This document shows, piece by piece, positions 13,759 through 30,373 of a DNA stretch of 37,849 bases (position 1 is the stretch's first letter; the number at the start of each line of letters is the position of its first letter). Both the position numbers and the translations under genes were made by a program. The stretch is from an uncultured bacterium (lineage in GTDB: Bacteria > Fidelibacterota > Marinisomatia > Marinisomatales > UBA1611), in the NCBI GenBank assembly GCA_964001155.1, contig CAXFCD010000052.1, positions 1 through 37,849 on the forward strand, given 5' to 3'. The notes beneath the pieces are model-generated. The model searched no databases. It was not told where the DNA came from and worked only from the letters and a program-made list of their open reading frames with translations.

Positions 13759-14949
13759 TTAATTTGCCAGATCATATCTATGAATAGTATTATCTAATTG
13801 GATAAAAAAGGTATCCGAATTATCAATTTTTGAAAATTTCACATTTTTATACGATTTGTTGGAAATTTCATGAGTAGTGAGAGTCTCCTTTAAAAAATTA
13901 TATTGGAGAAGTTTTATATTGTCGTAAAATAATCCATTTGGGGATGGTGATAGTGATTTTGATGTGAGAATTAATAACAAATTATCATAATTCATACACT
14001 CCATAGGGAATACTTCATCATCAAATTTTATTTTAATCGGATCCATTATTTTTGATGGATCATAAATTGTTACACCATCCTTATAAATAAGAGCTAACTG
14101 CTTGTTTATCCAGATGACTTTTCGAGGCATTACTGCCAAAGGCATAGACATAATTTTATTCAAATTATTAAGGTCGAATAAAGTTAAATGAGGAATTGGA
14201 TTTATTCTTTCGGTGGGATTGGTTGTCCCAACAACAGAAACTATATTTTTTGGTGAAATGGATGTGAAATATGGTTGAACCATGTCAAAAGTGACGCTTG
14301 GTTTAGATTCTAATGATTCCTTTAATTGAAAAAATGTTACATTATTTCTGGAATTTAGTTTTGCTGTTTTCATTCCTAAGAAATATAGTTGGCTATTGTG
14401 AGATTGGCTGAGGATGACCTTCTCTGTAGTCCAGGGACTTTCACCGAAAAGATTAAATTTGCCTATCAATTCTCCATTCACATTAAAGACTGAATATGAT
14501 TGTGATTCAGCCCATAGAATAAATATTTGTTCATTAAAAATGATGATATTTGGAATCCCTGAATCATAAGGAATTTCGATTTGCCAAGGGGAATTTCTAA
14601 TTGCAAAATTTGAAATGGGTTGGAATGTTAAAATAGCCTGCTCTTTATTTTTTGGAATTATTAACGAAACAACCATTAATAGATCTGGTAATTTGTTTGC
14701 TAATACCTTTATAATCCTTCCTTTGGAGATTTCATAGATTGAATTACCATTTTTGAAAACATGTTGTTCATTATAGCTTAGAATAGCTGAATCACTTACA
14801 GATAGCACTGTTGAAGAATTTTGAAGTGTATATGATTGAACTAAAAGAGCATTGTCCTGACTGCTGATAAAACTAGGCAAAAAAAATAAAAGAAAAAGGG
14901 TGGTGGGGAATTTCATTTTATGTAGGCTCACGTTATTCTTTCCGTGCAT
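13759..14949 (-). CDS. Hypothetical secreted protein (no family recognised); the true start may be the MKF... codon at 14916
   Basis: A long ORF with no competing ORF. It has a hydrophobic N-terminal signal (MKFPTTLFLLFFLPSFISSQ) and lies 3 nt upstream of the M23 gene on the same strand. It is visibly more AT-rich than its neighbours. Confidence 0.5.
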   Translation of the reverse strand: MHGKNNVSLHKMKFPTTLFLLFFLPSFISSQDNALLVQSYTLQNSSTVLSVSDSAILSYNEQHVFKNGNSIYEISKGRIIKVLANKLPDLLMVVSLIIPKNKEQAILTFQPISNFAIRNSPWQIEIPYDSGIPNIIIFNEQIFILWAESQSYSVFNVNGELIGKFNLFGESPWTTEKVILSQSHNSQLYFLGMKTAKLNSRNNVTFFQLKESLESKPSVTFDMVQPYFTSISPKNIVSVVGTTNPTERINPIPHLTLFDLNNLNKIMSMPLAVMPRKVIWINKQLALIYKDGVTIYDPSKIMDPIKIKFDDEVFPMECMNYDNLLLILTSKSLSPSPNGLFYDNIKLLQYNFLKETLTTHEISNKSYKNVKFSKIDNSDTFFIQLDNTIHRYDLAN

Positions 14950-15006: not shown

Positions 15007-16743
15007 TTATTTCATAAATACCATTTGACGAGTTTTAGTGAGATTTCCATATCTTAGTTCATAGATATATGTTCCACTCCCGACAAGAATTCCATTTTTA
15101 TCAGTACCATTCCAAATGGCATAATGGGCTCCTGCAGTTTTTAACTCTTTATTAACCAGTTTTACAATTTCATTTCCTAACATATTATAGATAGTTAATG
15201 AAACAGTATTATTTACTGGAAGATAGTATTCGATTCGTGTAGATGGATTGAATGGATTAGGATAGTTTTGTGCAAGCCTGTAATCATCGGGCGTAATCAA
15301 AGTGATGTCTCTGATTGATGATAATGAGCCATCCCATTCAGCTAAGCGAAAAACTCTGTTTGCATCCCAATCGTAACCTGTATCTGTACTGTCATTGACA
15401 CCTTTGTAAGGAAGAGCCATCTCCCAGTTACCATCGCCATCGAAGTCGGCTAAATTGGTTTTTTGAACTGAGCCGGTTGTAGCGTCTTCTAGTGCAAAAG
15501 TACTCAAGGTCCAATGTGTTGCATCTAACGGATCTCCACCTTCAGCTAGTTCAAGAAGGTTTATGTCGCTTGCGCCGGCTGAGCCGCCCATTACAACACC
15601 AAATCCACTCGCCGCACTTACACCATGACCACCATATGCACCAAACTCGTTTATGATACTTACTTCTGAATTGGCTGTCCAGTCGCTCGTGGTATCAAGG
15701 CTTGTGGCATCGCCATCTGAATCAGTGACCACAAAAAGACTGCCGTCATAATATCCAGTAACGTAAACCTCATGCTTGCCGTCATTGTCCATATCAGCAG
15801 CGGAAGCGCCTAAGGTCCAATCGTCAGAGATACCGAGTTTTAAATAACTTGTATCACCAATAGTGTATTCATTGGCTCCCGTAGCTTCGATGAAGAACAT
15901 TGCAAGATTATTCCATGAGAAACAGGCTGCTTCAAGAAGACCATCGCCATCCGTATCACAGATTACTATATCCTGTGGACTTCCTCCACCTAAAGCATTT
16001 TCTCGGACGCCATCTTTATCAACATCACGAGGTGACATGGAGAATTCTTCTACAATAGTGGTTCCAAAGTCACCTATGTTACCGGTAACTGACATAATGA
16101 TGAACCGATCACCTGAATAAGGTGTTGAACCATCTTGAGTTCCCCAAACAGGATCACTTGTTCCGTTGTTTGCAAGAAGAATTTCATGCATACCATCTCC
16201 ATCAATATCTCCAACAGAAAATCCTTCTACTCGAGATTCAGCAAGTGAGTCATTAAGAGCGGCCATGAAGTCAACTCTGAATGCAGCTTCGGTACCATAT
16301 CCATTATCTGTTCCATCGTATTCATAGACATGCAAACCTGCGTCAGGATTCTCTGCCCCAGGCCAACGTCCTACGTGAAAGATAATTTCATGCATACCAT
16401 CTCCATCCAGGTCTCCGGTATGCACGTCGCGGGGTGCGCTAAAGTCTGCGGTTATTTCGGCAGACGCCCATACGAACGCGAATGTATCTGTTCCTGCTTC
16501 TTCAAAACAGAAAACTTGTCCACCATTTTGATAACTGGTAATCCAAACTTCCTGCATGTTGTCTCCGTCCAAGTCGGTACCAGTTAACACGCCACGACCA
16601 CCATCATAGGGTACACCGCCAAAAAGGGTATCACTTCCGGATATATTATTTGGCGCAACAGCTGTCTGAACAAAACCGCCATCAGCAGTAATCACAGTAC
16701 TTGTAATTAATAGAACGAAAAAATTAATAACTGATTTTTTCAT
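15007..16743 (-). CDS. FG-GAP/VCBS-repeat (integrin-alpha-like beta-propeller) protein with a T9SS C-terminal sorting domain
   Basis: Repeated Ca-binding DxDxDG blades: DLDGDNMQEVW, GDLDGDGMHEII, GDIDGDGMHEILL, DTDGDGLLEA, ADMDNDGKHEVYV, ADFDGDGNWEMAL. Signal peptide present. The tail is NYPNPFNPSTRIEYYLP... Confidence 0.8.
   Translation of the reverse strand: MKKSVINFFVLLITSTVITADGGFVQTAVAPNNISGSDTLFGGVPYDGGRGVLTGTDLDGDNMQEVWITSYQNGGQVFCFEEAGTDTFAFVWASAEITADFSAPRDVHTGDLDGDGMHEIIFHVGRWPGAENPDAGLHVYEYDGTDNGYGTEAAFRVDFMAALNDSLAESRVEGFSVGDIDGDGMHEILLANNGTSDPVWGTQDGSTPYSGDRFIIMSVTGNIGDFGTTIVEEFSMSPRDVDKDGVRENALGGGSPQDIVICDTDGDGLLEAACFSWNNLAMFFIEATGANEYTIGDTSYLKLGISDDWTLGASAADMDNDGKHEVYVTGYYDGSLFVVTDSDGDATSLDTTSDWTANSEVSIINEFGAYGGHGVSAASGFGVVMGGSAGASDINLLELAEGGDPLDATHWTLSTFALEDATTGSVQKTNLADFDGDGNWEMALPYKGVNDSTDTGYDWDANRVFRLAEWDGSLSSIRDITLITPDDYRLAQNYPNPFNPSTRIEYYLPVNNTVSLTIYNMLGNEIVKLVNKELKTAGAHYAIWNGTDKNGILVGSGTYIYELRYGNLTKTRQMVFMK
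15010..15276 (-). other. T9SS type-A C-terminal sorting domain of the FG-GAP protein
   Basis: LAQNYPNPFNPSTRIEYYLPVNNTVSLTIYNMLGNEIVKLV...AIWNGTDKNGILVGSGTYIYEL...RQMVFMK. Confidence 0.75.
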
Positions 16744-16896: not shown

Positions 16897-19554
16897 ATGA
16901 ATCATAAACATGAGATAGTTTCGGTTCTCCTTTGCATTTCCGCTTTATTTGCTTCTGGAGGAAAGATTTCAGGTCAGATAACGGACATTGAAACGGGCGC
17001 ACCATTACCTGGCGTGAATGTTATGGTTCAAAACTTAAATATCGGGTCAGCAACTGACCAATTTGGTGTCTATGTAATTATGAATGTACCAACTGGTTAC
17101 CATTCAATAGATGCATCCTACATTGGGTATTCAAAATATGTGGTTCAAAACTTAAGAGTAAGTTTAGATCAAACTACGACCCAAGACATTCAATTAACTC
17201 CCGAAATTATTGAAGGTAAGGAAATTATTGTTTTGGCTGAACGACCACTGGTGCAAAAAGATCTAACTGCATCACAAAGAATTACAACATCTGAAGAAAT
17301 AAAAAATTTACCTGTGGAATCATTTTTAGGTGTTCTTACCACTCAGGCAGGCGTAAATCAAGGTGCAGGTGGAGAAATTCATATAAGGGGTGGGAGGTCT
17401 AATGAAGTCGGATACTATATTGACGGTGTTTCTGTAGCAAACCCGTTTTTTACCAATAGCCTTGCCGTTAATATTTCAAATAAAGCACTGGAAGAAATGA
17501 AGGTTGTCAGTGGTGCATTCAATGCAGAATATGGCAATGCAATGAGTGGTATTGTTAATCTCCAAATTAAAGAGGGTGGCCCCGATTACCATGGGAGTGT
17601 TTCAATATACTCCGGCGATTATTTTTCGGACGCAACTGACATTTTTATGAATATCGATGATGTTAATTTCAGTGCAAATCAAATCTTTGATGGTTCACTC
17701 AGCGGTCCAGTACCATTCTTATCAAAGCTAACATTTAACATTAGTGGTAGATATAGTGACAGTGAAGGTTATTTGTTTGGTCAACGTGAACATAAACCGG
17801 ACGATTTTGCAGATTTTAGGGTTTCAGATTATTGGATAATACAACTTGGTGGTGATAATAAATATGTCCCTATGAATCCATCACAAAAACTGAACCTGCT
17901 CTCGAAACTGACATACAGATTTACGCCAAAACTTAAATTATCTTTGCAAATGCTCCAAGATAGTCGAGATTGGAAATCGTATTCCCACGTATATAAATAC
18001 AATCCAGATGGTACCTATAACTATTTTACACAAAATAATAATTATTCTATAAAATTGACTCAAGCATTTTCACGGTCTTTTTATGAAGCAAATTTTTTCA
18101 ACTCAACAACAGATTTTAAACAGTATGTATTTGAAGACCCTACAGATGATCAATATGTATCTACAAATTCAATTTTAGGTTCTCCACCTTCTGCAACCTT
18201 TGCATTTGGAGGAACTCAAATGGGGCATTATTCAAGAGAATCAAACTCTCAAGGTGGAAAATTTGATTTCACCAGTCAAATTACAAATCGACATGAAGTG
18301 AAAATTGGAGCAAATTTTAGAATTGATAATCTTGAAGAAGATAATTTTGTTGTTTTGTTTGATGGCTATGAATATCCAGAGCCAACAGTCCCACCAGTGA
18401 ATGAATCACCCAGTCATAATTATTATGAAAATCAAGCGGTATTTATTAGTTCATATCTTCAGGATAAAGTAGAATACCCTGATATGATAGTTAATGTAGG
18501 TATTCGATATGATTCTTTTGATCCAAATGATACCTATATAGAGGATCTGATCAATCCTGAAAATCAGAGAATTCAAGCCAATAAAAAATCAATGATATCC
18601 CCAAGATTAGGTGTGTCCTTTCCAATTACTGATGAAGGAATTCTACACTTTAGCTATGGACATTTTTATCAAATCCCTACCTTACGTAGACTGTATAAAA
18701 CGAGTATTTTTGGAGCCAATATTTCTCCATCAGTAGGCAATGCAAATCTAAAACCGGAAAAAACTGTACTCTATGAGTTTGGATTGCAACAGCAGTTTAC
18801 AAGAGTATTAGCCATCGAGGGAAGTGTATTTTATAAGGATATTCGAGATCTCCTTGCACTCCAATCTATTGACTATCTATCGCCAACTTATGGCCCTTCT
18901 TCTTATTCTATTTATATGAATAAAGATTATGGAATTGTAAAGGGACTTACGCTTAGTCTAACAAAAAGATACGATAAAGTATCAAAAACATCAGCGTTTC
19001 TAGATTACTCATATCAAATTGCAGAAGGAAATAGTCTGAAATCTGGTTCATTCTATTTCAACTCATTAACAGGAGAAGAAGAAGAAAAAAGGATTGTTCC
19101 ACTCAATTGGGATCAGAGACATATATTAAATGCGACAGTTACGATTAGTGCCCCGCAAAATTGGGGTATAAGTTTCATCGGTAAACTTGCCCAAGGATGG
19201 CCCTATACACCGAATATTCCTTTTGCTAATTATATCCCGAATATGAATAGTGGAAGAAAACCCTGGCAGAAAAATGTTAATGTCAGATTACATAGAAACT
19301 TTAATCTTGGGATTCTAGATGTGGTATTATTTGGCAAGATATATAATTTATTTGATAGTAGAAATGAAAGGTACGTGTTTAATGATACGGGAAGAGCAGG
19401 TTATACATTTGTGAATAGGTCTTCACAAGAAACTAAGGCATTTATACAGCATTATGGCGAGCCAGGTGTGCATACATGGGAAGAATATCAAATTAGGCCT
19501 AATTATTATAGTTCACCTCGATCTATTCAGGCTGGTCTTTCGGTTGAATTTTAA
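16897..19554 (+). CDS. TonB-dependent outer-membrane receptor with an N-terminal CarboxypepD_reg-like domain
   Basis: The N-terminus SGQITDIETGAPLPGVNVMVQNLNIGSATDQFGVYVIMNVPTGYHSIDASYIGY is a CarboxypepD_reg domain. A plug-like segment follows (IHIRGGRSNEVGYYIDGVSV). A long beta-rich barrel ends in an aromatic residue (...GLSVEF). Confidence 0.85.
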   Translation: MNHKHEIVSVLLCISALFASGGKISGQITDIETGAPLPGVNVMVQNLNIGSATDQFGVYVIMNVPTGYHSIDASYIGYSKYVVQNLRVSLDQTTTQDIQLTPEIIEGKEIIVLAERPLVQKDLTASQRITTSEEIKNLPVESFLGVLTTQAGVNQGAGGEIHIRGGRSNEVGYYIDGVSVANPFFTNSLAVNISNKALEEMKVVSGAFNAEYGNAMSGIVNLQIKEGGPDYHGSVSIYSGDYFSDATDIFMNIDDVNFSANQIFDGSLSGPVPFLSKLTFNISGRYSDSEGYLFGQREHKPDDFADFRVSDYWIIQLGGDNKYVPMNPSQKLNLLSKLTYRFTPKLKLSLQMLQDSRDWKSYSHVYKYNPDGTYNYFTQNNNYSIKLTQAFSRSFYEANFFNSTTDFKQYVFEDPTDDQYVSTNSILGSPPSATFAFGGTQMGHYSRESNSQGGKFDFTSQITNRHEVKIGANFRIDNLEEDNFVVLFDGYEYPEPTVPPVNESPSHNYYENQAVFISSYLQDKVEYPDMIVNVGIRYDSFDPNDTYIEDLINPENQRIQANKKSMISPRLGVSFPITDEGILHFSYGHFYQIPTLRRLYKTSIFGANISPSVGNANLKPEKTVLYEFGLQQQFTRVLAIEGSVFYKDIRDLLALQSIDYLSPTYGPSSYSIYMNKDYGIVKGLTLSLTKRYDKVSKTSAFLDYSYQIAEGNSLKSGSFYFNSLTGEEEEKRIVPLNWDQRHILNATVTISAPQNWGISFIGKLAQGWPYTPNIPFANYIPNMNSGRKPWQKNVNVRLHRNFNLGILDVVLFGKIYNLFDSRNERYVFNDTGRAGYTFVNRSSQETKAFIQHYGEPGVHTWEEYQIRPNYYSSPRSIQAGLSVEF

Positions 19555-19578
19555 ACGATATCTTAGTTAGGTAAAATT

Positions 19579-22500
19579 TTGAAAATCACACAATACAACA
19601 ATTCCAAATCAATTTTATATTTAGTTGGATTAGTGTTAATACTTTCAAATCCAGTATATGCATTTTTACCATTAAATAAAAAAAATAATGATCAAGAACC
19701 ACCGCGAAAAGATTGGACAAATACTCAATATACGAATTATTACAAATGGCGGGAGAATACTCTTCAGAGACAAATGGATGAGGAAAATGACGATCAAATT
19801 CTTAGAAGACAGAAAGCTATACTTAATGGCAACAAGATAACGTCGGAAATTTGGAATTACGGTAGTATCTCAAGCCCAGGAAACCGAACCACTGATATTG
19901 TATGGGAAAGTTTGGGATATGGGTATGAATTTGGGCCTTTTATTTGTGCAGAGGTGGAAGTCGAGCCTCAAAGTCACTTAGATGCTTATATTAAAACTGA
20001 CGAGAATGGAAATCCGGTTACCAATGAAAATGGAGATACTGTTTGGGTAGCAAGAGTGATTAGTGATGGTTTGGTTTCCTTAGGAGGTGAAGTTTCACCT
20101 GATGGAAAGGATATTTGGGGCTGGCAACCTCTCGCTTATAATTCCGAAAATGTACCTTATGCAGATACTGAGAGCAATTATATCCCAACCTCAAACGATT
20201 TTGATCGGGATGGTGACGGTAAACCAGACAGTTGGCCGGAAGGATGGTACAATGAAATCCTAAAAGAGTTTAAGTGGCCAGGCGCATTACGCCAAGGTGC
20301 ATCCAACTCTGATATGGAATCCTTTTTTGTTGTAGACGATCGCACGAATAAAGAATTTGAATATTACCCTTTTCCAGAAGATTCCACGCGAAAAGGATTA
20401 GGGATTGAAATTGAATGCCGTTATTACCAATGGTCAAATCCACTGGCCGAAGATATTATATTCCTCATTTATAAGGTAACAAATAAAAGTCAAAAAGACT
20501 TGAATAAAGTCCTTTTCGGTATGTGGGGGGATCCCCACATTGGTGGTCCATCTAATTGGCAGGATGATTTATCATATTTTGACCGTGATATTAACATGGT
20601 TTATTGCTGGGATGAAGATGGTCACAGCGATATTGCCGGACGTGAACCGGGATACTTCGGTTATAAATTTCTTGAAAGTCCTGGTGATCCTTATGATGGA
20701 TTAGATAATGACTCTGATGGAATGGTCGACGAAAGCAGGAGTGATGGCATAGACAATGACGGTGATTGGGATCCGGATAAACATGATGTTGGAGTAGATG
20801 GTATACCAAATACAGGTGATACCGGTGAAGGAGACGGTGCCCCAACTGCTGGTGATCAATACGACATTAGAGAACCGGGTGAACCAAACTTTGAATGGAC
20901 TGATTTAGATGAAGCAGATATGGTGGGTCTAACAGGATTTGCATCACCGGCTTTCGGTGGAAATAACTCTATTTCTAATGATCATTATGTTTTCGAAAAC
21001 TTTTTAACACCAGGCGTTTTTGATTCTGCCAATGCAAACTCAGCAGGGGATTATATTTTTATTTACAGTTCAGGACCAATTGATCTTCCTGCGGGTGAAA
21101 CTCGCCGATTTTCCATTGCATTGTTAGTTGGACAAAATTATGAAGACTTAACACTGAATGCGGTGACTGCACAAAGTATTTATGAGCGGAATTATCAATT
21201 TGCAAAACCACCTGAAAAACCAAATGTTACCGTTGTCCCTGGTGATGAGAAAGTCACACTTTACTGGGATGATATTGCAGAATCTTCCATTGATCCAATT
21301 TCAGAGAAAAATGATTTTGAAGGCTATGTTATTTACCGAAGTACAGATCCCCAATTTTTAGATCAGCAAACAATAACTGATGCCTATGGATCTAACTTTT
21401 TGTTTACTCCGCTCGAGCAGGTTGGAGGAGCACCAGCAAAATTTGATCTGATAAATGACTACAGCGGTTTGAGCAGTATACCATACACGGGTCATGGAAT
21501 TCCATATAATTTGGGAAGCAATACCGGCATCCAACATTCTTTTGTGGACTCAAATAATGTAATTAATGGACAAGTCTATTATTACACTGTAGTTTCCTAT
21601 GATCATGGAGATGACAGTCTTCAGATCGCACCTGCTGAATGCTCAAAACTGATCACTTTGAATCCGGAATCAAATGAGTTATTTCTCGATGTAAATACAG
21701 TCCAAATTATACCAAGAGTGCCTGCAGCAGGTTATACGGAAGGTAGCTTAACCAGCGCAGGGATATTTCATGAAGAAGGTATTGGAACAGGAAATGTGAG
21801 AATTGAGATTATTGATCCAATGAAAATAGAAGACAGTGATACCTTCCGCGTTACATTTAAAGAATCACCAACAAGATATTCGGTTGAGGATACAAAACCA
21901 GTTGATGAAATTTTTATAGCTAATAGTGGCAAATTCATTGGACTGACATTTAGGAATATTGTAAAAGAATCCTTTAATTTGAAAAGCATGGATGGCACTG
22001 TTGTTTATATTGATAGTGTCGACTATGAGTTGGATTCAGATTATGGTCGAGTTCGCGCCATTCCTGATTCTTCCGGAGGCGGTTTAGAAGATGGCGTACA
22101 ATATCGCGTAACCTATACTTATTTATCAATTAAAGACAGTGAAATGTTAAATAATGAAGAATCAAATCCTGTTTTTGATGGATTGAAAATTTTTATAGAA
22201 GATCAACCATTAGATATTGATGAGAGTAAAACAGGGTGGAATTTATATAGTCCAACAAATTATACTACAGTCGTAGGAGTATTTTCACAAGGAGGAAACG
22301 CATTTCCAGCGGATTATGAAGTTCGGTTTTCATCATCAATTGTTGATACAGGTTCTTTTGCTGGAATATTGACACCCTTTGAAATTTATAAAACCACCAT
22401 GGGTATGATCCCTGAAAAGCAACGGTTTGCAATCATAAAGAAGCAACCCAATGAAAGTAATGATACATGGGATAGTCATGATGAAATTGTTTTATTTGAA

Positions 22501-23001
22501 GGTGAAGGATTCAGTTCACCTACTTGGATGATAAAATTTCTACAACCACCGGCGGATACACCCGTTATTCCTACTGAAGGTGATATTTATCAAATTGCTA
22601 CAACTCGTCCCTTCACTACTGATGATATTTTTACATTTGTTACAACAGCATCAAAAATTGATGAAAATCAAGGAATTAATGATTTAGAAAAAATCTCTGT
22701 TGTTCCTAATCCTTATGTCGTAACAAATACCCTCGAAAGATTAGATAGGCAAAATCCAAGGGACAGAGGTCCCCGGCGAGTATATTTTAACCATTTACCT
22801 GCTGAATGTACTATACGGATTTATACGATTACAGGTGAATTGGTAAAATCATTAGTGCACAGTTCAACAATTGATGATGGCAAAGAATACTGGGATCTCA
22901 CAACAAATGACAATTTTCCAATTGCATATGGAGTTTATATTTTTCATGTTGATGCAGGAGAAATAGGTGAGAAAATCGGGCGATTTGCAGTTATTAAATA
23001 A
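19579..23001 (+). CDS. Large (1140 aa) secreted protein of unknown family with a thrombospondin-type-3-like Ca-binding Asp cluster, an FN3-like domain and a divergent T9SS/FlgD-Ig-like C-terminal domain
   Basis: TTG start 24 nt after the receptor stop. Signal peptide present. DGLDNDSDGMVDESRSDGIDNDGDWDPDKHDVGVDGIPNTGDTGEGDG cluster. FN3-like PEKPNVTVVPGDEKVTLYWDD...GYVIYRS. The C-terminus is VVPNPYVV...IRIYTITGELV...GVYIFHV...RFAVIK. Confidence 0.7.
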   Translation: MKITQYNNSKSILYLVGLVLILSNPVYAFLPLNKKNNDQEPPRKDWTNTQYTNYYKWRENTLQRQMDEENDDQILRRQKAILNGNKITSEIWNYGSISSPGNRTTDIVWESLGYGYEFGPFICAEVEVEPQSHLDAYIKTDENGNPVTNENGDTVWVARVISDGLVSLGGEVSPDGKDIWGWQPLAYNSENVPYADTESNYIPTSNDFDRDGDGKPDSWPEGWYNEILKEFKWPGALRQGASNSDMESFFVVDDRTNKEFEYYPFPEDSTRKGLGIEIECRYYQWSNPLAEDIIFLIYKVTNKSQKDLNKVLFGMWGDPHIGGPSNWQDDLSYFDRDINMVYCWDEDGHSDIAGREPGYFGYKFLESPGDPYDGLDNDSDGMVDESRSDGIDNDGDWDPDKHDVGVDGIPNTGDTGEGDGAPTAGDQYDIREPGEPNFEWTDLDEADMVGLTGFASPAFGGNNSISNDHYVFENFLTPGVFDSANANSAGDYIFIYSSGPIDLPAGETRRFSIALLVGQNYEDLTLNAVTAQSIYERNYQFAKPPEKPNVTVVPGDEKVTLYWDDIAESSIDPISEKNDFEGYVIYRSTDPQFLDQQTITDAYGSNFLFTPLEQVGGAPAKFDLINDYSGLSSIPYTGHGIPYNLGSNTGIQHSFVDSNNVINGQVYYYTVVSYDHGDDSLQIAPAECSKLITLNPESNELFLDVNTVQIIPRVPAAGYTEGSLTSAGIFHEEGIGTGNVRIEIIDPMKIEDSDTFRVTFKESPTRYSVEDTKPVDEIFIANSGKFIGLTFRNIVKESFNLKSMDGTVVYIDSVDYELDSDYGRVRAIPDSSGGGLEDGVQYRVTYTYLSIKDSEMLNNEESNPVFDGLKIFIEDQPLDIDESKTGWNLYSPTNYTTVVGVFSQGGNAFPADYEVRFSSSIVDTGSFAGILTPFEIYKTTMGMIPEKQRFAIIKKQPNESNDTWDSHDEIVLFEGEGFSSPTWMIKFLQPPADTPVIPTEGDIYQIATTRPFTTDDIFTFVTTASKIDENQGINDLEKISVVPNPYVVTNTLERLDRQNPRDRGPRRVYFNHLPAECTIRIYTITGELVKSLVHSSTIDDGKEYWDLTTNDNFPIAYGVYIFHVDAGEIGEKIGRFAVIK
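22693..22998 (+). other. Divergent T9SS-like C-terminal domain of the 1140-aa protein
   Basis: ISVVPNPYVV, then an insertion (TNTLERLDRQNPRDRGPRR), then VYFNHLPAECTIRIYTITGELVKSL...YWDLTTNDNFPIAYGVYIFHVDAG...GRFAVIK. It has the same strand pattern as the other five tails but with an extra charged insert. Confidence 0.45.
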
Positions 23002-23023
23002 GAATATTTTATTGACTAGAATA

Positions 23024-24076
23024 ATGAAAAAAATTATCCATAAGACCAATATAGCGGTGTTGCTTATTTTTATTTTATTCCAATTATGTTGGGTATATGG
23101 CCAATTGGACGATTCACAAACAATAACAAAATCGGGAACAACAGCAGCACAATTTTTGAAAATAGGTATAGGGGCTCGTGGAACGGCGATGGGCGGTGCC
23201 TTTGCAGCGATCGATGGTGATATAAGTTCCATGTACTGGAATGCTGCGGGTATTGCAAGCATGAACAGGTTAGAGACAATGTTTGTTGATGGCGATTGGC
23301 TTGCAGGTGTTAGACTCCAATATCTTGGCTTTTCAATTCCAATACATAGAATTGGTGTTCTGGGATTAAGTGTCACAAATCTTTCAGTTCCAGAAGATAA
23401 AGTACGTACAATTTCTGAACCAGAGGGTACAGGTGAATATTGGGGTGCTCGGGATTTAGCTGCGAATCTAAGTTTTGCCAGAAAATTATCCGATAAATTC
23501 AGTATTGGAGGAAATATAAAATATATTCAACAAACAATTTGGCATGCCAGTGCCAGTACATATGCTGCGGATTTAGGAGCGCTATTTGAAACACCTTTTA
23601 ACGGAATTAGACTAGGTGCTTCTATTAATAATTACGGCGGTAAAATGAAGTTAGAGGGTAGAGACCAAAAAATCAGTGTAGATCCAGATCCTTTAAATCA
23701 GGGTAATGTAGAGTTCATTAATGCGAATCTGGAAACAGACCAATTTCCAATTCCTTTAATTTTCCGAGTTGGGCTATCGGGTGAATTAATTAATAAACAA
23801 AATTTAAGATTATCCTACGCTATTGATGCGTTGCACCCTAATGATAATTCTGAGTATGTGAATTTGGGGATGGAGACAGTTTTTAATAACCTTGTGTCAA
23901 TTCGTGCAGGATATCCTTCATTATACAAGGAAGAATCGATTGAAGGTCCAACCTTTGGAGCAGGGTTGAATTATAGGATTTGGCGTACAGCAACAATATT
24001 GAAAGTCGATTATTCCTTTGCAGACTTTGGTCCATTAGGAGATGTGAAAAGAATATCTATAGGATTTAATTTTTAA
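23024..24076 (+). CDS. PorV/PorQ-family (UPF0164/FadL-like) T9SS-associated outer-membrane beta-barrel
   Basis: Family signature TTAAQFLKIGIGARGTAMGGAFAAIDGDISSMYWNAAGIA follows a signal peptide. The protein is beta-rich and ends ...ISIGFNF. Start chosen at the ATG at 23024 (MKKIIHK...), 22 nt after the upstream stop, rather than the ORF-track start at 22967. Confidence 0.75.
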   Translation: MKKIIHKTNIAVLLIFILFQLCWVYGQLDDSQTITKSGTTAAQFLKIGIGARGTAMGGAFAAIDGDISSMYWNAAGIASMNRLETMFVDGDWLAGVRLQYLGFSIPIHRIGVLGLSVTNLSVPEDKVRTISEPEGTGEYWGARDLAANLSFARKLSDKFSIGGNIKYIQQTIWHASASTYAADLGALFETPFNGIRLGASINNYGGKMKLEGRDQKISVDPDPLNQGNVEFINANLETDQFPIPLIFRVGLSGELINKQNLRLSYAIDALHPNDNSEYVNLGMETVFNNLVSIRAGYPSLYKEESIEGPTFGAGLNYRIWRTATILKVDYSFADFGPLGDVKRISIGFNF

Positions 24077-24098
24077 TTATTGAACATATAGATTTGAA

Positions 24099-25373
24099 TT
24101 GAAACGAATTCTCACTTTTCAATTTCTTATTTTTTTTAACTTATCCTTTGCACAAATCGGTGAGTTAGGCCCAGTCCTAGATCAATTTCCTCATCTAATA
24201 GCACGAGACAGTTTATCCTTCATTATTTCTGAAGGTAGATCATCACCGAGTTTTGACTCTTTAGAAGGTGGTGCCATTGAAATCGAAGGGGATTTTGTAA
24301 CAGGAGTAGAGTTTGTTCTTTTTAATGAATCAGGAACACAGAAAAAAGTCCAAGGGAAAATTTTCAGAAACGAATTACTTGGCACTACAATTGCAACATT
24401 TAGAACTCTTGAAAATGAATTTATTGACCAATTTTCTTTTAAAATTATTTCTACAGAGTTAATTGAAGTAAAATCCGTCATCGGATTTCTTCCTGACTCT
24501 GAAATTAGGGTAGGTGCACCCAAGTCGTTAATTCCCATTGTTGGAGATGTTCCAAAACCCACTATTGTTTCCCGGGAAGAATGGGGGGCTCAACCTTCAA
24601 AATACTCCTATAGCAATCATCCCTATATTGACAAATTAACTCTCCATCATGCAGCTTGTTGCAGTGCAAATAACCTTGAAGAAGGTAAAAGCCAAGTTTT
24701 ATGGATCCAGGATTTTCACCAAAATGGCCGTGGTTGGAATGACATTGGCTATCATTTTCTTGTAGATCGTGCGGGAAATATTTACCAAGGTCGGCCGGAA
24801 ACAGTGATAGGTGCTCACGTTGGCGGCGCGAATACCGGGAATATTGGTGTCTGTTTATTGGGGTGTTACCATCCGCCTGAAACTAATTGTTTTGAGTTTA
24901 TGAGTGATGAAAGTAAAGATGCCATCGTTCGTTTATTCGGTTGGTTATCAGACGCATATGAACAAAATCCTTCAATCCTATTGGGTCACAGAGATTATTT
25001 TGGAACGACTGCCTGCCCTGGCGATAATGTTTGGTATAGATTACCCCTATTAAGGATTGATATAACAGACTATATAACATCAATGGAGTTACCACCTATT
25101 TATTTATCTCAACCCGCATATCCAAACCCATTCTCTAACCAGACAACCCTTAGTTTTGAATTAACGGAAAAAGAGGATGTAATCATTGAAATCTATGATC
25201 TTCTAGGTAGAAAAGTAAATTCGATAGGTGCAACAGAAATAGAACCGGGAATAACAAATTTTATCTGGAATGGAACAAATAAATCAGGTAAAAAACTTGG
25301 GAATGGGATGTATTTTGCTTTACCCGTTAATCACCCAGAATTAGAATTGATAAAACTGGTAATGGTCAAATAA
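24099..25373 (+). CDS. Secreted N-acetylmuramoyl-L-alanine amidase (PGRP/Amidase_2 domain) with an unknown N-terminal domain and a T9SS C-terminal sorting domain
   Basis: SREEWGAQP...LTLHHAAC...WNDIGYHFLVDRAGNIYQGRP...GAHVGGANTGNIGVCLLG...LLGHRDY..TTACPGD is the PGRP/T7-lysozyme-type Zn amidase pattern. Signal peptide present. The tail is AYPNPFSNQTTLSFEL... Confidence 0.85.
   Translation: MKRILTFQFLIFFNLSFAQIGELGPVLDQFPHLIARDSLSFIISEGRSSPSFDSLEGGAIEIEGDFVTGVEFVLFNESGTQKKVQGKIFRNELLGTTIATFRTLENEFIDQFSFKIISTELIEVKSVIGFLPDSEIRVGAPKSLIPIVGDVPKPTIVSREEWGAQPSKYSYSNHPYIDKLTLHHAACCSANNLEEGKSQVLWIQDFHQNGRGWNDIGYHFLVDRAGNIYQGRPETVIGAHVGGANTGNIGVCLLGCYHPPETNCFEFMSDESKDAIVRLFGWLSDAYEQNPSILLGHRDYFGTTACPGDNVWYRLPLLRIDITDYITSMELPPIYLSQPAYPNPFSNQTTLSFELTEKEDVIIEIYDLLGRKVNSIGATEIEPGITNFIWNGTNKSGKKLGNGMYFALPVNHPELELIKLVMVK
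25104..25370 (+). other. T9SS type-A C-terminal sorting domain of the PGRP-type amidase
   Basis: LSQPAYPNPFSNQTTLSFELTEKEDVIIEIYDLLGRKV...FIWNGTNKSGKKLGNGMYFAL...IKLVMVK. Confidence 0.75.
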
Positions 25374-25462: not shown

Positions 25463-26701
25463 TTAATAAGATTCTAAAAACTTCAATGGATGTGTATTAT
25501 TTAAAAGTTCGTGATACAACTTATCGCTGCCCCACAATCGATTTAGGTGCTGTTCTTTGAAGGTAACTTCACTTGAATACAATTGATATATAGTAAAAAG
25601 AGTTATAACGCCCGTATCCACACTTTTAAATGTATTTCGATTTATAACAATTATTTCAATGCCAAAACATTTTTCTTTTTCAAATTTTGGGTGCTTTGAC
25701 ATGCCGGGGATGGATAGAGGCATAAAAGAGATCGGTTGAAAAACCACGCCCGGAAGTTTGTATTTATTCAATTTTTGGGACAAAAGTTTCCCGTCAATCC
25801 AGGGCGCGCCAATTTGTTTAAATGGGTTTTGGGTTCCCCGGCCTTCACTGATATTTGTTCCTTCAATCAAGCACATTCCCGGGTATATAAAGGCAGTTTC
25901 TAAATCAGAGATATTTGGGGATGGTTTTACCCAAGGCAAATCTGTTTCATCATACCAAAGACTTGGATTCCAGCCTTCAATTTCGATGACTTCTACTCTT
26001 GGGATAGGGGAAATCCATTTATTCTCAATTATTTTTTGGGCTAAATCGCCTACCGTTCCACCATACCGGATTGGGATTGGGTAATATCCAACAAAAGTTT
26101 GAAAATCCATTTCCAAAATCGGGCCTTCCACAATATCACCACGGATTGGATTAGGACGATTCAATACCAAGACGGGAATATCTAACTCCCCGGCAGCTTC
26201 CATGACCAAACCTAAGGTGGTGATATAGGTATAAAAACGGGCGCCAATATCCTGGATATCATAAACAATCAAATCAATCCCTGCCAGCATTTCAGGTTTG
26301 GGTTTTCGAATTTTTCCGTACAAACTAATAACTTGAGGAAAATCAGTATCCTCCTTTGAGTAATGGATTTTTTCTCCTGCATCTGCTTCACCAAATAATC
26401 CGTGTTCAGGAGAAAAAATAATTTTTAGATCTACATCTTTAATTTCCATGAGACGTTTGTAATTTGGTGTCCCTTTTTTATCAACACCGGTGTGGTTGGT
26501 CACTAATGCAATTGATTTATCTTGAATTAATCCCAATTTAGAATCCAGTAGAATATCTAATCCTGTTTTGATATTAATTTTCTCCACAGGGATTTTAGGA
26601 TTAAGCTTTTGTTTTTCCATTTGTTCCTGATGGATGGATGGATGATCTCCCTGAGAAAAAAGGGTACTGATAAAAATAAAAACAGTGATACGATATATCA
26701 T
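25463..26701 (-). CDS. namZ: DUF1343 protein, exo-beta-N-acetylmuramidase NamZ family
   Basis: GLDILLDSKLGLIQDKSIALVTNHTGV...IFSPEHGLFGEADAGE...ISLYG...IDLIVYDIQDIGARFYTYITTLGLVMEAAGE..IPVLVLNRPNPIRGDIVEGPIL...FVGYYPIPIRYGGTVGDLA is the DUF1343/YbbC pattern. Signal peptide present. Confidence 0.85.
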   Translation of the reverse strand: MIYRITVFIFISTLFSQGDHPSIHQEQMEKQKLNPKIPVEKINIKTGLDILLDSKLGLIQDKSIALVTNHTGVDKKGTPNYKRLMEIKDVDLKIIFSPEHGLFGEADAGEKIHYSKEDTDFPQVISLYGKIRKPKPEMLAGIDLIVYDIQDIGARFYTYITTLGLVMEAAGELDIPVLVLNRPNPIRGDIVEGPILEMDFQTFVGYYPIPIRYGGTVGDLAQKIIENKWISPIPRVEVIEIEGWNPSLWYDETDLPWVKPSPNISDLETAFIYPGMCLIEGTNISEGRGTQNPFKQIGAPWIDGKLLSQKLNKYKLPGVVFQPISFMPLSIPGMSKHPKFEKEKCFGIEIIVINRNTFKSVDTGVITLFTIYQLYSSEVTFKEQHLNRLWGSDKLYHELLNNTHPLKFLESY

Positions 26702-29148
26702 TTTAACAGTGTTACTTTTTTGGATTTAGTTTCAAAACCGTTACTGACGGAAATGATAAATAATCCTGATGAAACCGGTTGACCATTTTGATCTAATCCA
26801 TTCCACGTGAAGTATGATTTAAAATTGGATGGTATGTGAGTTGTTTGTTTTATTGGCCTACCAAGAATATCATGAATAGAAATCAAAATTTGTTCATTTG
26901 GTGTGGAAGAAAATGTCATTGTAAAGGATGTATTAGAAGGATTTGGATATAATTTATATATGGATATTGATTCGGGTGCCGGGAATGAATTATTCTCATC
27001 CATTTTAAGTTGAGATTCATATAAAGACATAATCTGTTCCATTATTTCATTTCTCTGTGATTCCGGATATATTGCCTCAAATCCAACAGCTAAATAAACT
27101 AATCCACCTATTTGATTATTTGTCCCAAATGGACCAATATAGTCTATTCCCATCCCGCCTTGGCTGGCATAATTCACACCCACATATTTCACATTTACGG
27201 AAGCACCGCCCACCGGTTGAATGCCATCGGGCCAATCTACGTCATAAGTTCCCTGGCTGCCATCATCAAAAGTGATAGTTGGTATACTTTCAAAAATAGA
27301 GTTGCTGACGCCATACCCGCTATAAACATTATTCCCTGCAGCATCTGATAAATAATCCGCTTTTAAATAATTTGTATAAAACTGGTTATCGGAATTGCTT
27401 CCTTGTCCAGCAAGGTCATACCCAATCTCTGATCCTGAAACAAATAAAAACCCGCCACCTTCTAAAAATGATTTTACCAGATTTTGTTCAGTGGTTGTAA
27501 ACGTGCTGGTTGCTGTCCCTTCTTCGCCCAAAATCCAATCAATGTATTTATAATCTGATAGTAAGACAGTACCATTCATTACAGCTTCATTGGATGCTGA
27601 ATTAAATGCATACCCCGCATGATGAAGAGAACTACCATGTTGGCGAATGAAATCGAAGGTGTTATTTGTTCCCGTAATACGATCAAATCCGTTTACGATT
27701 AAGCATGATACAGGTTCGTTGGTTGGGGTAATGCCTAACATTTCAGTCGTTTCACTTTCACCAAAAAGATTCATCGCATTAATAGACAAAAAATAGGTTT
27801 CACCTTGGTTCAAATTTTCTATGAAAATAGGATTTTCAGAGAAAATTCCAAGTGTATCAGATTCGCCACTTGGCTCCAAATAATTTCTGAACACTGTATA
27901 TTCTTCAGCATCAAGTGCACCTCCAAAGTCAATTCGGATAGACCCGTTTCCTATATTTGTTATAGATAAATTTGTAGGCTGAGTGGGTGGGGCACCACCA
28001 CTGAATTTTGCATAAAGCAATTCCCATAATTCCGAATTTGAACCATCATAACCCAAAGCCCACATACCAATTCCTTTTAAATCATGATAAAGTGCAAAAT
28101 CGTATTTTAGAGATAAGGACAAACTGTCGTCGTACCATCCTTGATTCCAATTATTATCCTGGTAATAATACCAAGGCGTTTGGGATGACTCATGCCATTG
28201 TTTTCCATAGGATTGAGCTAAGGGTTCCATTTCTGAATATGTTTTAGCGTCACCGGTTCCGGTTGTAGCAGCTCCCGGTACATAGGAAGTCGCCGGCCAT
28301 TCATATCCATAATATGGAATACCCAAAATTAATTTATCCGCCTGAAAATTTGTTTTCTCTAAATAGTCAAAAATGGTCCAGGTCAAAGTATATCCTGGTC
28401 CTGTTAAAGGGGAAACCGGCCCCGTTGTTGAACTACCACTCCAATGGTATCCATATCCCATGATAAATAAACCATCACTAATTGTAGCCAATGCATTATA
28501 ATCCCAGGCATCATTCCAATCAACCGCTGGCATTGCCAATGTCACCTGCGAGCCAGGTATTTGGGTATGAAATGCTGATGTGAGGTCTGTAATGAATGTT
28601 ACCATATTTTCTTTTTGTGAGGCGGGGAAGGATTCAAAATCAATATTCACTCCATCCGCATTTCCAGCTTGGACTTGTTCAATCAAATTATCAATCAACG
28701 TCTGTCGGTAAGTAGGATTACTGAGGAGCGTTTCCAAACCACTATTGCTGAATAAAGTGGCGCACAATACAACATTTGTCCCATGGGCATGCGCTTCATT
28801 GATTAGACTCGCAACGGGCCATCCATGGAGGTCGTCTAAGGTGCCATTTGGATTAACTTCGGCACTGAAGTAGGCTAAGGTGGAGATCAGATCAAAATTA
28901 TAGTTTTGCCATGAGGTCCCCATCCAATAAGGATGGTACCCAAAAACTTCCCGAGTTGGTTCCCGTTGTCGATCTAATTTAGGTCTTATGGGTCCACTAT
29001 TATCTAATTCTTGAAAAATGTAATTTTGGTTGTAATAGTCTAATTGGGTTTGATGGATACTCGGAATATTCTGGCCAACTAAACCAGTCACCAGGCCGAT
29101 TATTAAAGGATAAAATCTAAACTTCACAGCCTGAAAAAATATCTTCAA
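26698..29148 (-). CDS. Secreted GH18 glycoside hydrolase with an FN3 domain, an uncharacterised ~230-aa domain and a T9SS C-terminal sorting domain
   Basis: Catalytic block ADGVNIDFE: the D-x-E is retained, but the second Asp of DxxDxDxE is Asn. The YHPYWM...NYNFDLISTLAYFSAEVNPNGTL start resembles the spore-cortex-type GH18 subgroup (needs a CDD check). The tail is LYPNPSNTSFTMTF...VTLLK. An alternative GTG start lies at 29127. Confidence 0.8.
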   Translation of the reverse strand: MKIFFQAVKFRFYPLIIGLVTGLVGQNIPSIHQTQLDYYNQNYIFQELDNSGPIRPKLDRQREPTREVFGYHPYWMGTSWQNYNFDLISTLAYFSAEVNPNGTLDDLHGWPVASLINEAHAHGTNVVLCATLFSNSGLETLLSNPTYRQTLIDNLIEQVQAGNADGVNIDFESFPASQKENMVTFITDLTSAFHTQIPGSQVTLAMPAVDWNDAWDYNALATISDGLFIMGYGYHWSGSSTTGPVSPLTGPGYTLTWTIFDYLEKTNFQADKLILGIPYYGYEWPATSYVPGAATTGTGDAKTYSEMEPLAQSYGKQWHESSQTPWYYYQDNNWNQGWYDDSLSLSLKYDFALYHDLKGIGMWALGYDGSNSELWELLYAKFSGGAPPTQPTNLSITNIGNGSIRIDFGGALDAEEYTVFRNYLEPSGESDTLGIFSENPIFIENLNQGETYFLSINAMNLFGESETTEMLGITPTNEPVSCLIVNGFDRITGTNNTFDFIRQHGSSLHHAGYAFNSASNEAVMNGTVLLSDYKYIDWILGEEGTATSTFTTTEQNLVKSFLEGGGFLFVSGSEIGYDLAGQGSNSDNQFYTNYLKADYLSDAAGNNVYSGYGVSNSIFESIPTITFDDGSQGTYDVDWPDGIQPVGGASVNVKYVGVNYASQGGMGIDYIGPFGTNNQIGGLVYLAVGFEAIYPESQRNEIMEQIMSLYESQLKMDENNSFPAPESISIYKLYPNPSNTSFTMTFSSTPNEQILISIHDILGRPIKQTTHIPSNFKSYFTWNGLDQNGQPVSSGLFIISVSNGFETKSKKVTLLK
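26701..26952 (-). other. T9SS type-A-like C-terminal sorting domain of the GH18 protein
   Basis: LYPNPSNTSFTMTFSSTPNEQILISIHDILGRPI...FTWNGLDQNGQPVSSGLFIISV...KKVTLLK. Confidence 0.7.
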
Positions 29149-30373
29149 TTGATTCCCTGCGGCGGATTAAAGTTGGGTTTTCGCCATCAAGAAGCACCTC
29201 AGCAGGTTTGGGGCGTGTGCAAAATTGATGGGACATGGTGTAACAATATGCCCCCGCATCCATAACAGCAATTAGGTCGCCTTCTTCCACATATGGAAAC
29301 TCCCGATCTACAGCAATGCGATCGGTATTTTCACAAATTCGTCCTGTAATGTCAACAGTCTGATCAATTGGAGCATCTGGCTCGCCTACTTTATACATTC
29401 TGTGATGTGCACCATAAAGTGCAGGCCTCATAAGCGTTTCCATCCCTGCATCCACACCGATATATTTCCTATAACTATCTTTAATACCTGTCACGCGAGT
29501 TAGAAGTATTCCCGTATCACCAACCACTGATTTCCCCGGTTCTATCCAGAGCGACGGTTTTGATTCATTCTGTTGTTCAAAATAAGAATTGAAGTTCTTT
29601 CCTACTTGTGAAAATACGGCATCAAAGTCCAAGGTAGAGTCCTCATCAGTGTAAGGAATTCCATATCCGCCGCCTAGACTGACATACTCCATATGAATAT
29701 TTAATTCATCCTTAAGTTGTTCGACTGTTCCCAAAATTGATTTAATCAGTTCAGGGTAATAATCAGGGTCTAATACGCCCGAACCTGTCATACATTGAAT
29801 ACCGAATTTTTTTATGCCTGCTTCTTTTGCCAGACTGTAAGCACTGACGATGTCATAGTGAGGGACACCAAATTTTGAATTTTCTCCACCAGTAACAATT
29901 TGAGAAAAGGCGCCTTTACCAAATCCTGGATTCAACCGAAATGAAATATCTTCCGGAAGTCCAATTTTATTTAATCTGTCAAAGGATGTAATATCATCCA
30001 AATTGATATGGGCTCCGTGATCATAGGCGTACTTTAGATCTTCCGGGGATTCATAGTTGCCGGTGTAGATACATTCATTTCCAAGGATACCACTTTTCTC
30101 AGCAATATAGATTTCACCAGGGCTTGCACAATCACCACCAATAGATGGGACCGCTGTTTTCAATTCTTTAATTAAATGAGGATTATTATTCGCTTTTATC
30201 GTATAACAAATATGATAGGATGAAAAATTGTTTTTTAGAGCATGATTCAGTTTTTCAATATTGTGAATCAAACGCTCTTTCGAGTATATGTAAAGAGGTG
30301 TTCCAAATTGGCTTGCCAATGCATCAAATAAAGCTTTGTTTTTCAACAGGTTGAAGAGCGGATGTTTTTCCAT
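29117..30373 (-). CDS. lysA: Diaminopimelate decarboxylase (PLP-dependent Orn/DAP/Arg decarboxylase family 2)
   Basis: YTIKANNNP (PLP Lys), SLGGGYGIPY, EPGKSVVG, GRICENTD and DAGAYCYTMS boxes are present. Length is 418 aa. The 3' end overlaps the GH18 start by 11-32 nt. Confidence 0.8.
   Translation of the reverse strand: MEKHPLFNLLKNKALFDALASQFGTPLYIYSKERLIHNIEKLNHALKNNFSSYHICYTIKANNNPHLIKELKTAVPSIGGDCASPGEIYIAEKSGILGNECIYTGNYESPEDLKYAYDHGAHINLDDITSFDRLNKIGLPEDISFRLNPGFGKGAFSQIVTGGENSKFGVPHYDIVSAYSLAKEAGIKKFGIQCMTGSGVLDPDYYPELIKSILGTVEQLKDELNIHMEYVSLGGGYGIPYTDEDSTLDFDAVFSQVGKNFNSYFEQQNESKPSLWIEPGKSVVGDTGILLTRVTGIKDSYRKYIGVDAGMETLMRPALYGAHHRMYKVGEPDAPIDQTVDITGRICENTDRIAVDREFPYVEEGDLIAVMDAGAYCYTMSHQFCTRPKPAEVLLDGENPTLIRRRESIEDIFSGCEV

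Follow-up and report, generated by a model that had tools for sequence, protein, structure and literature searches.

Contig CAXFCD010000052.1 of an uncultured Marinisomatales bacterium (Fidelibacterota; GenBank assembly GCA_964001155.1) was analysed over its full length of 37,849 nt (37.8 kb; hereafter the window). We focus on four plus-strand genes in close succession, which encode a TonB-dependent receptor, a 1140-residue protein of its own family (the large protein), a β-barrel of the PorV/PorQ family and an Amidase_2-type enzyme. With moderate confidence, and from comparative sequence evidence, we read the first three genes as a modular, SusD-independent nutrient-capture cassette in which the large protein would sit on a PorV-like barrel of its own. 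Such a cassette is probably the counterpart of the Bacteroidota SusC/SusD pair in several phyla that lack SusD. Genomic support for a dedicated partnership of the large protein with its barrel and receptor is strong. Judged from its genomic context, the window copy most likely captures and imports peptidoglycan fragments.

Conservation of the three-gene unit

A scan of one genome per species gave 455 loci encoding a relative of the large protein. The best 80 come from the Marinimicrobia (Neomarinimicrobiota, Fidelibacterota), KSB1 and Calditrichota. In all, 92 loci were examined, paralogous ones included. A homologous receptor gene lies directly upstream of the large-protein gene on the same strand at all 76 loci with enough flanking sequence, and a PorV-like gene lies downstream at all 82 with enough flank. 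The co-occurrence of the three genes that the original prediction had proposed to look for is thus general among these loci, and collinearity on this scale excludes chance adjacency. At two loci (L003 and L004) genes of the triad overlap by 1 and 4 nt, at their start and stop codons.

The window-type proteins are 47–64% (receptor), 51–62% (large protein) and 43–59% (barrel) identical across phyla. Compared with starch-type paralogues from the same phyla (see below), the corresponding values are 35–43%, 34–41% and 30–49%. Receptor, large protein and barrel give congruent pairwise identity matrices, from which it follows that their genes diverge together as one unit.

A profile built from distant members led to paralogous clades in KSB1, Marinimicrobia, Calditrichia, WOR-3 and metagenome-assembled genomes (MAGs) labelled 'Bacteroidota', with cassettes 31–45% identical to the window type. 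The receptor gene is followed directly by the large-protein paralogue in 9/9 such loci inspected (L086–L094); CarboxypepD_reg is present in all of these receptors and a Plug match in all but that of L089. A PorV-family gene comes after the pair in eight of the loci and stands one gene further on in L088. The neighbouring genes are not concerned with peptidoglycan; they include genes for α-amylases with type IX secretion system (T9SS) C-terminal domains (CTDs), a CTD protein with a faint CBM20 match, GH77, glycogen phosphorylase, LacI or TrmB regulators, and SSF or maltose-type ABC importers. α-Glucan enzymes, LacI/TrmB regulators or SSF/sugar ABC importers occur in seven of the nine loci; L092 has none of them and L091 an α-amylase only. 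The organisation resembles that of a polysaccharide utilisation locus (PUL) in the starch-type loci L086–L091, in the LacI-linked L093 and L094, and in the window and its peptidoglycan-type relatives. Two cassettes stand in tandem on a single contig in L092 (1–13396), and L093 (5968–21420) appears to be arranged likewise.

The original prediction took the PorV paralogue to be a dedicated partner of the large protein, and the collinearity, the congruent matrices, the paralogous triads and the tandem cassettes all bear this out. Its further proposal, that barrel and large protein together replace SusD or a surface glycan-binding protein (SGBP), is upheld in part: the comparative support is strong, with paralogous triads in starch loci beside sugar regulators.

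In the window, the four genes are separated by gaps of 24, 22 and 22 nt, as had been predicted. The ORF (open reading frame) coordinates agree with these gaps if the barrel gene begins at ATG 23024, which gives a 350-residue protein with a signal peptide, 22 nt from the large-protein gene; the mechanically called ORF begins at GTG 22967, encodes 369 residues and overlaps the 3' end of the large-protein gene. Scans of the window for σ70 promoters and terminators yielded chance-level results only, and Rfam and tRNA scans yielded no matches. A SusD-family domain is absent from every scanned window ORF, the unscanned ORFs all being too small for one, so that the reported lack of a SusD-like gene stands. 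Nor was SusD found in any examined locus of the Marinimicrobia/Fidelibacterota, KSB1, Calditrichota, WOR-3 and relatives (FCB group).

The family assignments of receptor, barrel and amidase are all backed by hidden Markov models (HMMs). The receptor matches CarboxypepD_reg (60 bits), Plug (PF07715, 48.8 bits) and the TonB-dependent receptor barrel (PF00593, 92.2 bits); Plug precedes the barrel and both score above their cutoffs, identifying a TonB-dependent transporter. A TonB-box-like motif, E-[VI]-[VI]-V-[VLF]-A-[ED], is kept in 10/10 cassette receptors and resembles, in its sequence pattern, boxes of the DTIVVTA type. The receptor is not a member of the SusC/RagA family: the model of that family (TIGR04056) is absent from its 14 NCBIfam matches (E ≤ 0.01), no SusD gene is adjacent, and CarboxypepD_reg is the sole common feature.

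The barrel matches the PorV/PorQ family model NF033709 over its full length (profile positions 1–326 of 326; 203.8 bits, cutoff 90) and falls below the equivalog cutoffs for PorV (NF033710, 68.2 of 250 bits), PorQ (NF033711, 77.5 of 220) and PorV2 (NF052325, 75.8 of 325). The Pfam PorV score is 22.8 (cutoff 27), and the PDB PorV structure 6h3i_F gives a weak match (E 0.0013). A homologue search returned orthologues only, which carry the NCBI name 'PorV/PorQ family protein'. These scores place the barrel in the PorV/PorQ family but outside PorV, PorQ and PorV2 proper. Scoring below all three cutoffs and always linked to the cassette, it is not an unlinked housekeeping PorV, the case that would have spoken against the original prediction.

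The survey also brought up several observations on the loci themselves. In two loci of a KSB1 lineage (L001, 9538–9915; L002, 3252–3629) a gene for a 125-residue four-helix bundle of the 23S_rRNA_IVP family lies between receptor and large protein. MAG UBA7303 holds two window-type loci (L063 and L075) at 59–60% identity, one beside NamZ and the other beside an FG-GAP gene, reflecting either a duplication within the genome or a mixed bin. Cassettes of the Marinimicrobia type also occur under the labels Winogradskyella, Cytophagia, Chloroflexota, Methanobacteriota archaeon or Rhodothermus (L007, L020, L021, L038, L059, L072 and L078); these are probably mis-binned or mislabelled MAGs. Such label errors in public records mean that the phylum range of the cassette needs to be re-derived from marker genes.

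The large protein and its predicted attachment

The earlier description of the large protein as an orphan is wrong: close homologues, 60–86% identical over the full length and all annotated as hypothetical, number more than 1,800 in Marinimicrobia and KSB1. A profile search against 1.84 billion cluster representatives extended the family to 6,570 clusters at 50% identity (E ≤ 1e-3), with 946 at E ≤ 1e-30, and diverse members at 31–51% identity retain the whole architecture including the tail. That the protein stands outside known families was confirmed. Searches with the whole sequence and with pieces of it found no Pfam, NCBIfam or PDB sequence or profile match, apart from a marginal match of the tail (see below), and no match to a family with an unrelated role. 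The shared core carries a Pfam domain in none of 35 scanned family members, five of which have added Reg_prop repeats. Two candidate matches were rejected: the NCBIfam 'phage tail tube 6XGR' model at residues 775–861 (24.8 bits, cutoff 60), a generic β-sandwich resemblance, and a precomputed PF27730 (UCP028589) match on one homologue, marked 'faint' and judged to be noise.

The protein does not belong to the SusD family, having no Pfam match, an almost all-β model and a signal peptide without a lipobox Cys. It is likewise not a PorU (C25-like) sortase, since NF033707 does not match. A single Cys, C1077 in the tail, is invariant among 43 close orthologues; the 134-sequence family alignment has no invariant Cys at all.

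An AlphaFold2 model built from the 134-sequence alignment reached a pLDDT of 85.3 and a pTM of 0.80. It replaced an earlier run with 43 close homologues, which had a pLDDT of 63.6 and gave unusable Foldseek matches. The signal peptide is followed in the model by one N-terminal helix, a β-rich core (about residues 79–545) holding Asp-rich loops, a sandwich resembling FN3, further β-sandwiches and a CTD-like sandwich (Table 1). Foldseek found no global neighbour in the PDB (query-normalised TM-score ≤ 0.17).

The Asp-rich cluster is the region best conserved between paralogue clades (63% identity). Fourteen positions in it are invariant in the 134 sequences (D376, D378, D380, E385, D392, D394, W397, D403, G405, D407, G408, D414, G416 and E417), and its DxDxDG-type motifs suggest that it binds calcium. 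The FN3-like region has the conserved pattern PPxKP...VTLYW...FEGY.IYRS...YYY.V.AYD. The original description of these regions as a thrombospondin-type-3-like cluster and an FN3 domain finds no HMM support, the TSP_3 and fn3 models failing to match the large protein even at E ≤ 10; what holds of it are the invariant motifs and the predicted β-sandwich. The β-sandwiches at residues 711–1030 are modelled at high confidence and are the least conserved part between window-type and starch-type proteins (24–27% identity, versus 41–63% in the core and 46% in the tail). They are the candidate substrate-specific part.

The tail had been called T9SS-like with a charged insertion, and this description survives with a qualification. 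Neither the Pfam nor the TIGRFAM CTD model (PF18962, TIGR04183) matches the tail; FlgD_ig (E 0.15) is its only HMM match, and its only PDB sequence match, to the PorU CTD, is marginal (E 0.079). Compared by hhalign with the five genuine CTDs encoded in the window, it aligns with 87% probability (E 3.9e-6), and in the model it forms a seven-strand sandwich broken by a disordered insert at residues 1047–1062. A probable cause of the missed HMM match is the conserved 16-residue insertion. Across orthologues, the final 100 residues of the large protein are more conserved than the body (74% versus 61.5% identity), the opposite of the trend in the amidase (tail 38%, body 51%). This difference suggests that the tail is more than a disposable secretion signal, and we propose it as the docking module for the PorV-like barrel.

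From these features we envisage the following mechanism. The TonB-dependent transporter would be the energised import channel, and the T9SS would export the 1140-residue all-β protein. By analogy with PorU on PorV and PorZ on PorQ, the conserved CTD would not be removed and would stay docked on the cassette barrel. The large protein would thus be held at the surface beside the transporter, where it may bind substrate and hand it over as SusD and SGBPs do. Specificity would lie in the variable region (residues 711–1030) and in accessory cargo particular to each cassette, which in the window would be the T9SS-secreted MurNAc-L-Ala amidase and an FG-GAP propeller protein. Later steps would fall to enzymes of the surrounding island: NamZ, the NagZ-like GH3, LD- and DD-carboxypeptidases, M23 and the diaminopimelate (DAP) decarboxylase.

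Genomic context and candidate substrate

By its Pfam content, the window as a whole reads as a peptidoglycan-catabolic island (positions 1–31365). Besides the amidase, its members are a GH3 (NagZ-like)/β-lactamase-fold fusion, an SSF symporter, GHL10 with a CTD, an amino-acid permease, an LD-carboxypeptidase (S66, LdcA), a DD-carboxypeptidase (S13, DacB), a C26-type amidotransferase, M23 with a CTD, FG-GAP with a CTD, NamZ, GH18 with a CTD, an Orn/DAP decarboxylase and an AmiA-like amidase. T9SS-type tails occur on six window proteins, the five flanking ones being GHL10, M23, the FG-GAP protein, GH18 and the Amidase_2 protein.

Table 1. Features of the cassette and its neighbours in the window
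Feature	Position (nt)	Residues	Strand	Basis
TonB-dependent receptor gene	16897..19554		+	ORF and HMM
Receptor: signal peptide			+	Pfam
Receptor: CarboxypepD_reg		24–112	+	Pfam
Receptor: TonB-box-like motif EIIVLAE	17221–17241	109–115	+	Conservation
Receptor: Plug		120–218	+	Pfam
Receptor: 22-strand-type barrel			+	Pfam
Large-protein gene	19579..23001	1140 in all	+	ORF, own family
Large protein: signal peptide		1–29	+	Sequence
Large protein: Asp-rich cluster, putative Ca2+-binding loops	20689..20928	371–450	+	Invariant DxDxDG-type motifs
Large protein: FN3-like β-sandwich with insertion	21214..21708	546–710	+	Predicted strands and conserved pattern
Large protein: variable β-sandwich region	21709..22668	711–1030	+	pLDDT about 90 or more
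Large protein: T9SS CTD-like tail	22669..22998	charged insertion 1047–1062	+	Profile comparison and model
PorV/PorQ-family barrel gene	23024..24076		+	ORF and HMM
Amidase_2 gene	24099..25373		+	ORF and HMM
Amidase: Amidase_2/PGRP domain		177–309	+	Pfam/TIGRFAM
Amidase: T9SS type A CTD		340–424	+	Pfam/TIGRFAM
FG-GAP β-propeller protein with T9SS CTD	15007..16743		-	FG-GAP_3 and FlgD_ig/CHU_C tail (Pfam)
NamZ exo-N-acetylmuramidase, GH18 with CTD, DAP/Orn decarboxylase	25463..30373		-	Pfam

The amidase is a secreted N-acetylmuramoyl-L-alanine amidase. It matches PF01510 (59.8 bits, profile positions 5–131 of 131), PF18962 (28.6 bits, cutoff 27) and TIGR04183 (28.3 bits, cutoff 23). The motifs HHAAC...GHRD...TACPG are readable in it and are assigned as its Zn ligands. 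Genes for peptidoglycan-directed proteins recur beside the triad at 85 window-type loci: Amidase_2 at 27 of them, within 6 kb and in two arrangements, NamZ at 16, DAP decarboxylase at 14, GH18 at 12, DacB and C26 at 6 each, and LdcA and GHL10 at 5 each. None of these genes, the amidase included, is found in the six starch-type loci L086–L091. The amidase is present also in L078, a distant locus of 52% identity. It had been taken for part of the core operon and is better described as a variable accessory.

The FG-GAP protein is a conserved accessory of the cassette. Its gene is transcribed divergently from the receptor gene in the window, and a homologue adjoins the receptor gene in 51/85 window-type loci, on either strand. 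The tail of the protein is more conserved than its body (52% versus 41% identity), and the protein may also dock on a barrel instead of being cleaved. One Marinimicrobia locus (L085, 120–7089) carries three FG-GAP/CTD paralogues together with an S13 peptidase upstream of the triad, an expanded accessory set.

Peptidoglycan fragments are the likely substrate in view of the island, the FG-GAP protein and the secreted amidase that shares the operon. The muropeptide idea of the original prediction thus gains support from the island and from the recurrent neighbours, and the substrate itself is deduced from this context. Import of peptidoglycan fragments would fit a cultured Marine Group A isolate that is reported to draw on exogenous muropeptides for its wall, carbon and energy (PMC11652737, citing Katayama et al. 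2024).

Two further ORFs of the island deserve mention. At 46–2727 an 893-residue ORF joins a GH3 (NagZ-like) domain to a domain of the serine β-lactamase/penicillin-binding protein fold, with the SSF symporter gene after it; the product may be a muropeptide-processing enzyme in one polypeptide. A minus-strand ORF of 396 residues (13759–14949), located between the genes for M23 and the FG-GAP protein, has no Pfam family and no homologue near the triad in the 85 related loci.

Alternative readings and relation to known systems

Several observations weigh against the proposed cassette or its substrate, among them the missed CTD models described above. The second pair of the tandem locus L092 has no barrel of its own, a PorV-family gene following the first pair only, which suggests that one barrel can be shared between tandem cassettes. 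An identity of about 60% between phyla in the window-type orthogroup is unusual for a nutrient receptor; its cause could be a broader function or the movement of the entire module from one phylum to another. No amidase or NamZ gene lies within 6–10 kb of window-type loci labelled KSB1 or Calditrichia, and the substrate assignment therefore rests mainly on the Marinimicrobia; a DAP-decarboxylase homologue is nevertheless present at L028, a locus labelled KSB1. Lastly, the core has many invariant acidic residues and a local likeness to accessory domains of glycoside hydrolases and lyases, which leaves room for an enzymatic role.

The large protein might accordingly be a surface depolymerase or lyase acting on a polymer, with the barrel serving as an export shuttle only and the transporter importing the products. 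We consider this unlikely. The invariant acidic residues would suit it, as would the local Foldseek matches to β-supersandwich domains of GH94, GH116, dextran dextrinase and heparinase III, and shuttles dedicated to one cargo have been described for type B CTDs (PMC12618676). The matched PDB domains, however, are the non-catalytic N-terminal modules of those enzymes, and the model contains no catalytic (α/α)6 or TIM domain. A conserved core common to starch and peptidoglycan loci is hard to reconcile with one catalytic chemistry; moreover, the loci already encode enzymes with CTDs of their own, and the tail of the large protein is better conserved than its body.

Less probable again, in our judgement, is that a different conserved substrate, for instance chitin or GlcNAc oligomers, peptides or a cofactor, enters through the window-type cassette and that the association of the cassette with peptidoglycan genes in Marinimicrobia is secondary. 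The high identity across phyla and the missing amidase and NamZ near KSB1- and Calditrichia-labelled copies would then be expected, GH18 and GH3 could also serve chitin catabolism, and the best named relatives of the receptor are haem receptors, though its scores are far below their cutoffs. Against this, the peptidoglycan-specific neighbours (amidase, NamZ, LdcA, DacB and DAP decarboxylase) recur in several arrangements and extend to the distant locus L078, and so high a conservation might follow from the unvarying chemistry of peptidoglycan itself.

We regard as very improbable a divergent housekeeping T9SS attachment complex, in which the large protein, the barrel and the FG-GAP protein would be analogues of PorU, PorV and PorZ and the receptor would be unrelated or structural. 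The genes porU and porV are adjacent in Bacteroidota, the large protein has about 1,140 residues and its own CTD, the FG-GAP propeller with its CTD recalls the architecture of PorZ, and PorU supplies the one PDB sequence match and PorZ the top Foldseek E-value (4e-6); but the PorZ match has a TM-score of only 0.10–0.14, the PorU sortase model does not match, no Cys outside the CTD is invariant, a transporter bearing a TonB-box-like motif is always adjacent, and the paralogous cassettes are many, with two on one contig and others in substrate-specific loci with LacI/TrmB regulators.

The nutrient-capture cassette that we favour shares with the SusC/SusD core a CarboxypepD_reg TonB-dependent transporter followed directly by its obligate partner gene, and both are replicated as cassettes in substrate-specific catabolic loci that also encode regulators, surface enzymes and importers of the inner membrane. 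The partners differ: the cassette partner is an all-β protein of about 1,100–1,300 residues with a T9SS-type tail, whereas SusD is an α-helical, tetratricopeptide repeat-like lipoprotein of about 550 residues. The cassette also has a third obligate gene, for the PorV-family barrel, that the SusC/SusD core lacks, its receptor matches no SusC/RagA model, and a SusD domain is absent. Its accessory proteins carry T9SS CTDs, in contrast to the lipoprotein anchors of those in SusC/SusD loci.

An extracellular capture protein that feeds a TonB-dependent channel has precedents in BtuB-BtuG and TbpA-TbpB. TonB-dependent GlcNAc transporters of Xanthomonas lie in SusD-less carbohydrate (CUT) loci (PMC4173781). 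The partners in these systems are lipoproteins or absent, and none is known to be exported by the T9SS or to have a dedicated PorV-like anchor.

In the PorU-PorV and PorZ-PorQ pairs of Porphyromonas gingivalis, a surface protein with a CTD is held by a barrel of the PorV/PorQ family (PMC12365241). The cassette barrel is of the same family, and the tail of the large protein has its marginal match to the PorU CTD. The large protein differs in not being a C25 sortase (neither the PorU model match nor a conserved catalytic Cys is present), in occurring in multiple copies tied to substrate loci and in being always coupled to a TonB-dependent transporter, and retention of its CTD is presumed by analogy. 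Type B CTD cargo and its cognate PorP/SprF barrel are encoded side by side and are mutually specific (PMC12618676, PMC9143113), as in SprB-SprF of Flavobacterium johnsoniae. The cassette barrel belongs to PorV/PorQ and not to PorP/SprF, the tail resembles type A CTDs, and the large protein is paired with a nutrient transporter and not with motility adhesins. We found no published description of the triad in the open-access and bioRxiv literature, including the genome papers on Caldithrix and Melioribacter. The new element would be a T9SS-type partner with its own PorV-family anchor in PUL-like, TonB-dependent uptake.

SusC/SusD pairs are the standard marker of glycan uptake and serve for Bacteroidota only. 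Polymer degradation is attributed to the Marinimicrobia, KSB1, Calditrichota and WOR-3, which abound in sediments and the ocean interior; the three-gene cassette would make it possible to detect their PUL-like loci automatically. Several thousand 'hypothetical' proteins would gain a role as well, and PorV-family barrels a function beyond secretion. The window orthogroup is a candidate for the outer-membrane step of muropeptide acquisition, on which the only cultured Marine Group A bacterium is reported to depend (PMC11652737). More tentatively, and short of even odds when all its parts are taken together, the triad can be seen as a utilisome: a TonB transporter capped or fed by a giant β-protein that the T9SS exports and a PorV-type barrel holds permanently, coupling T9SS and TonB-dependent uptake in thousands of variants, of which the window type would be an outer-membrane importer of peptidoglycan fragments. 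If this holds, cell-wall scavenging in Marine Group A, and the dependence that goes with it, would rest on that importer.

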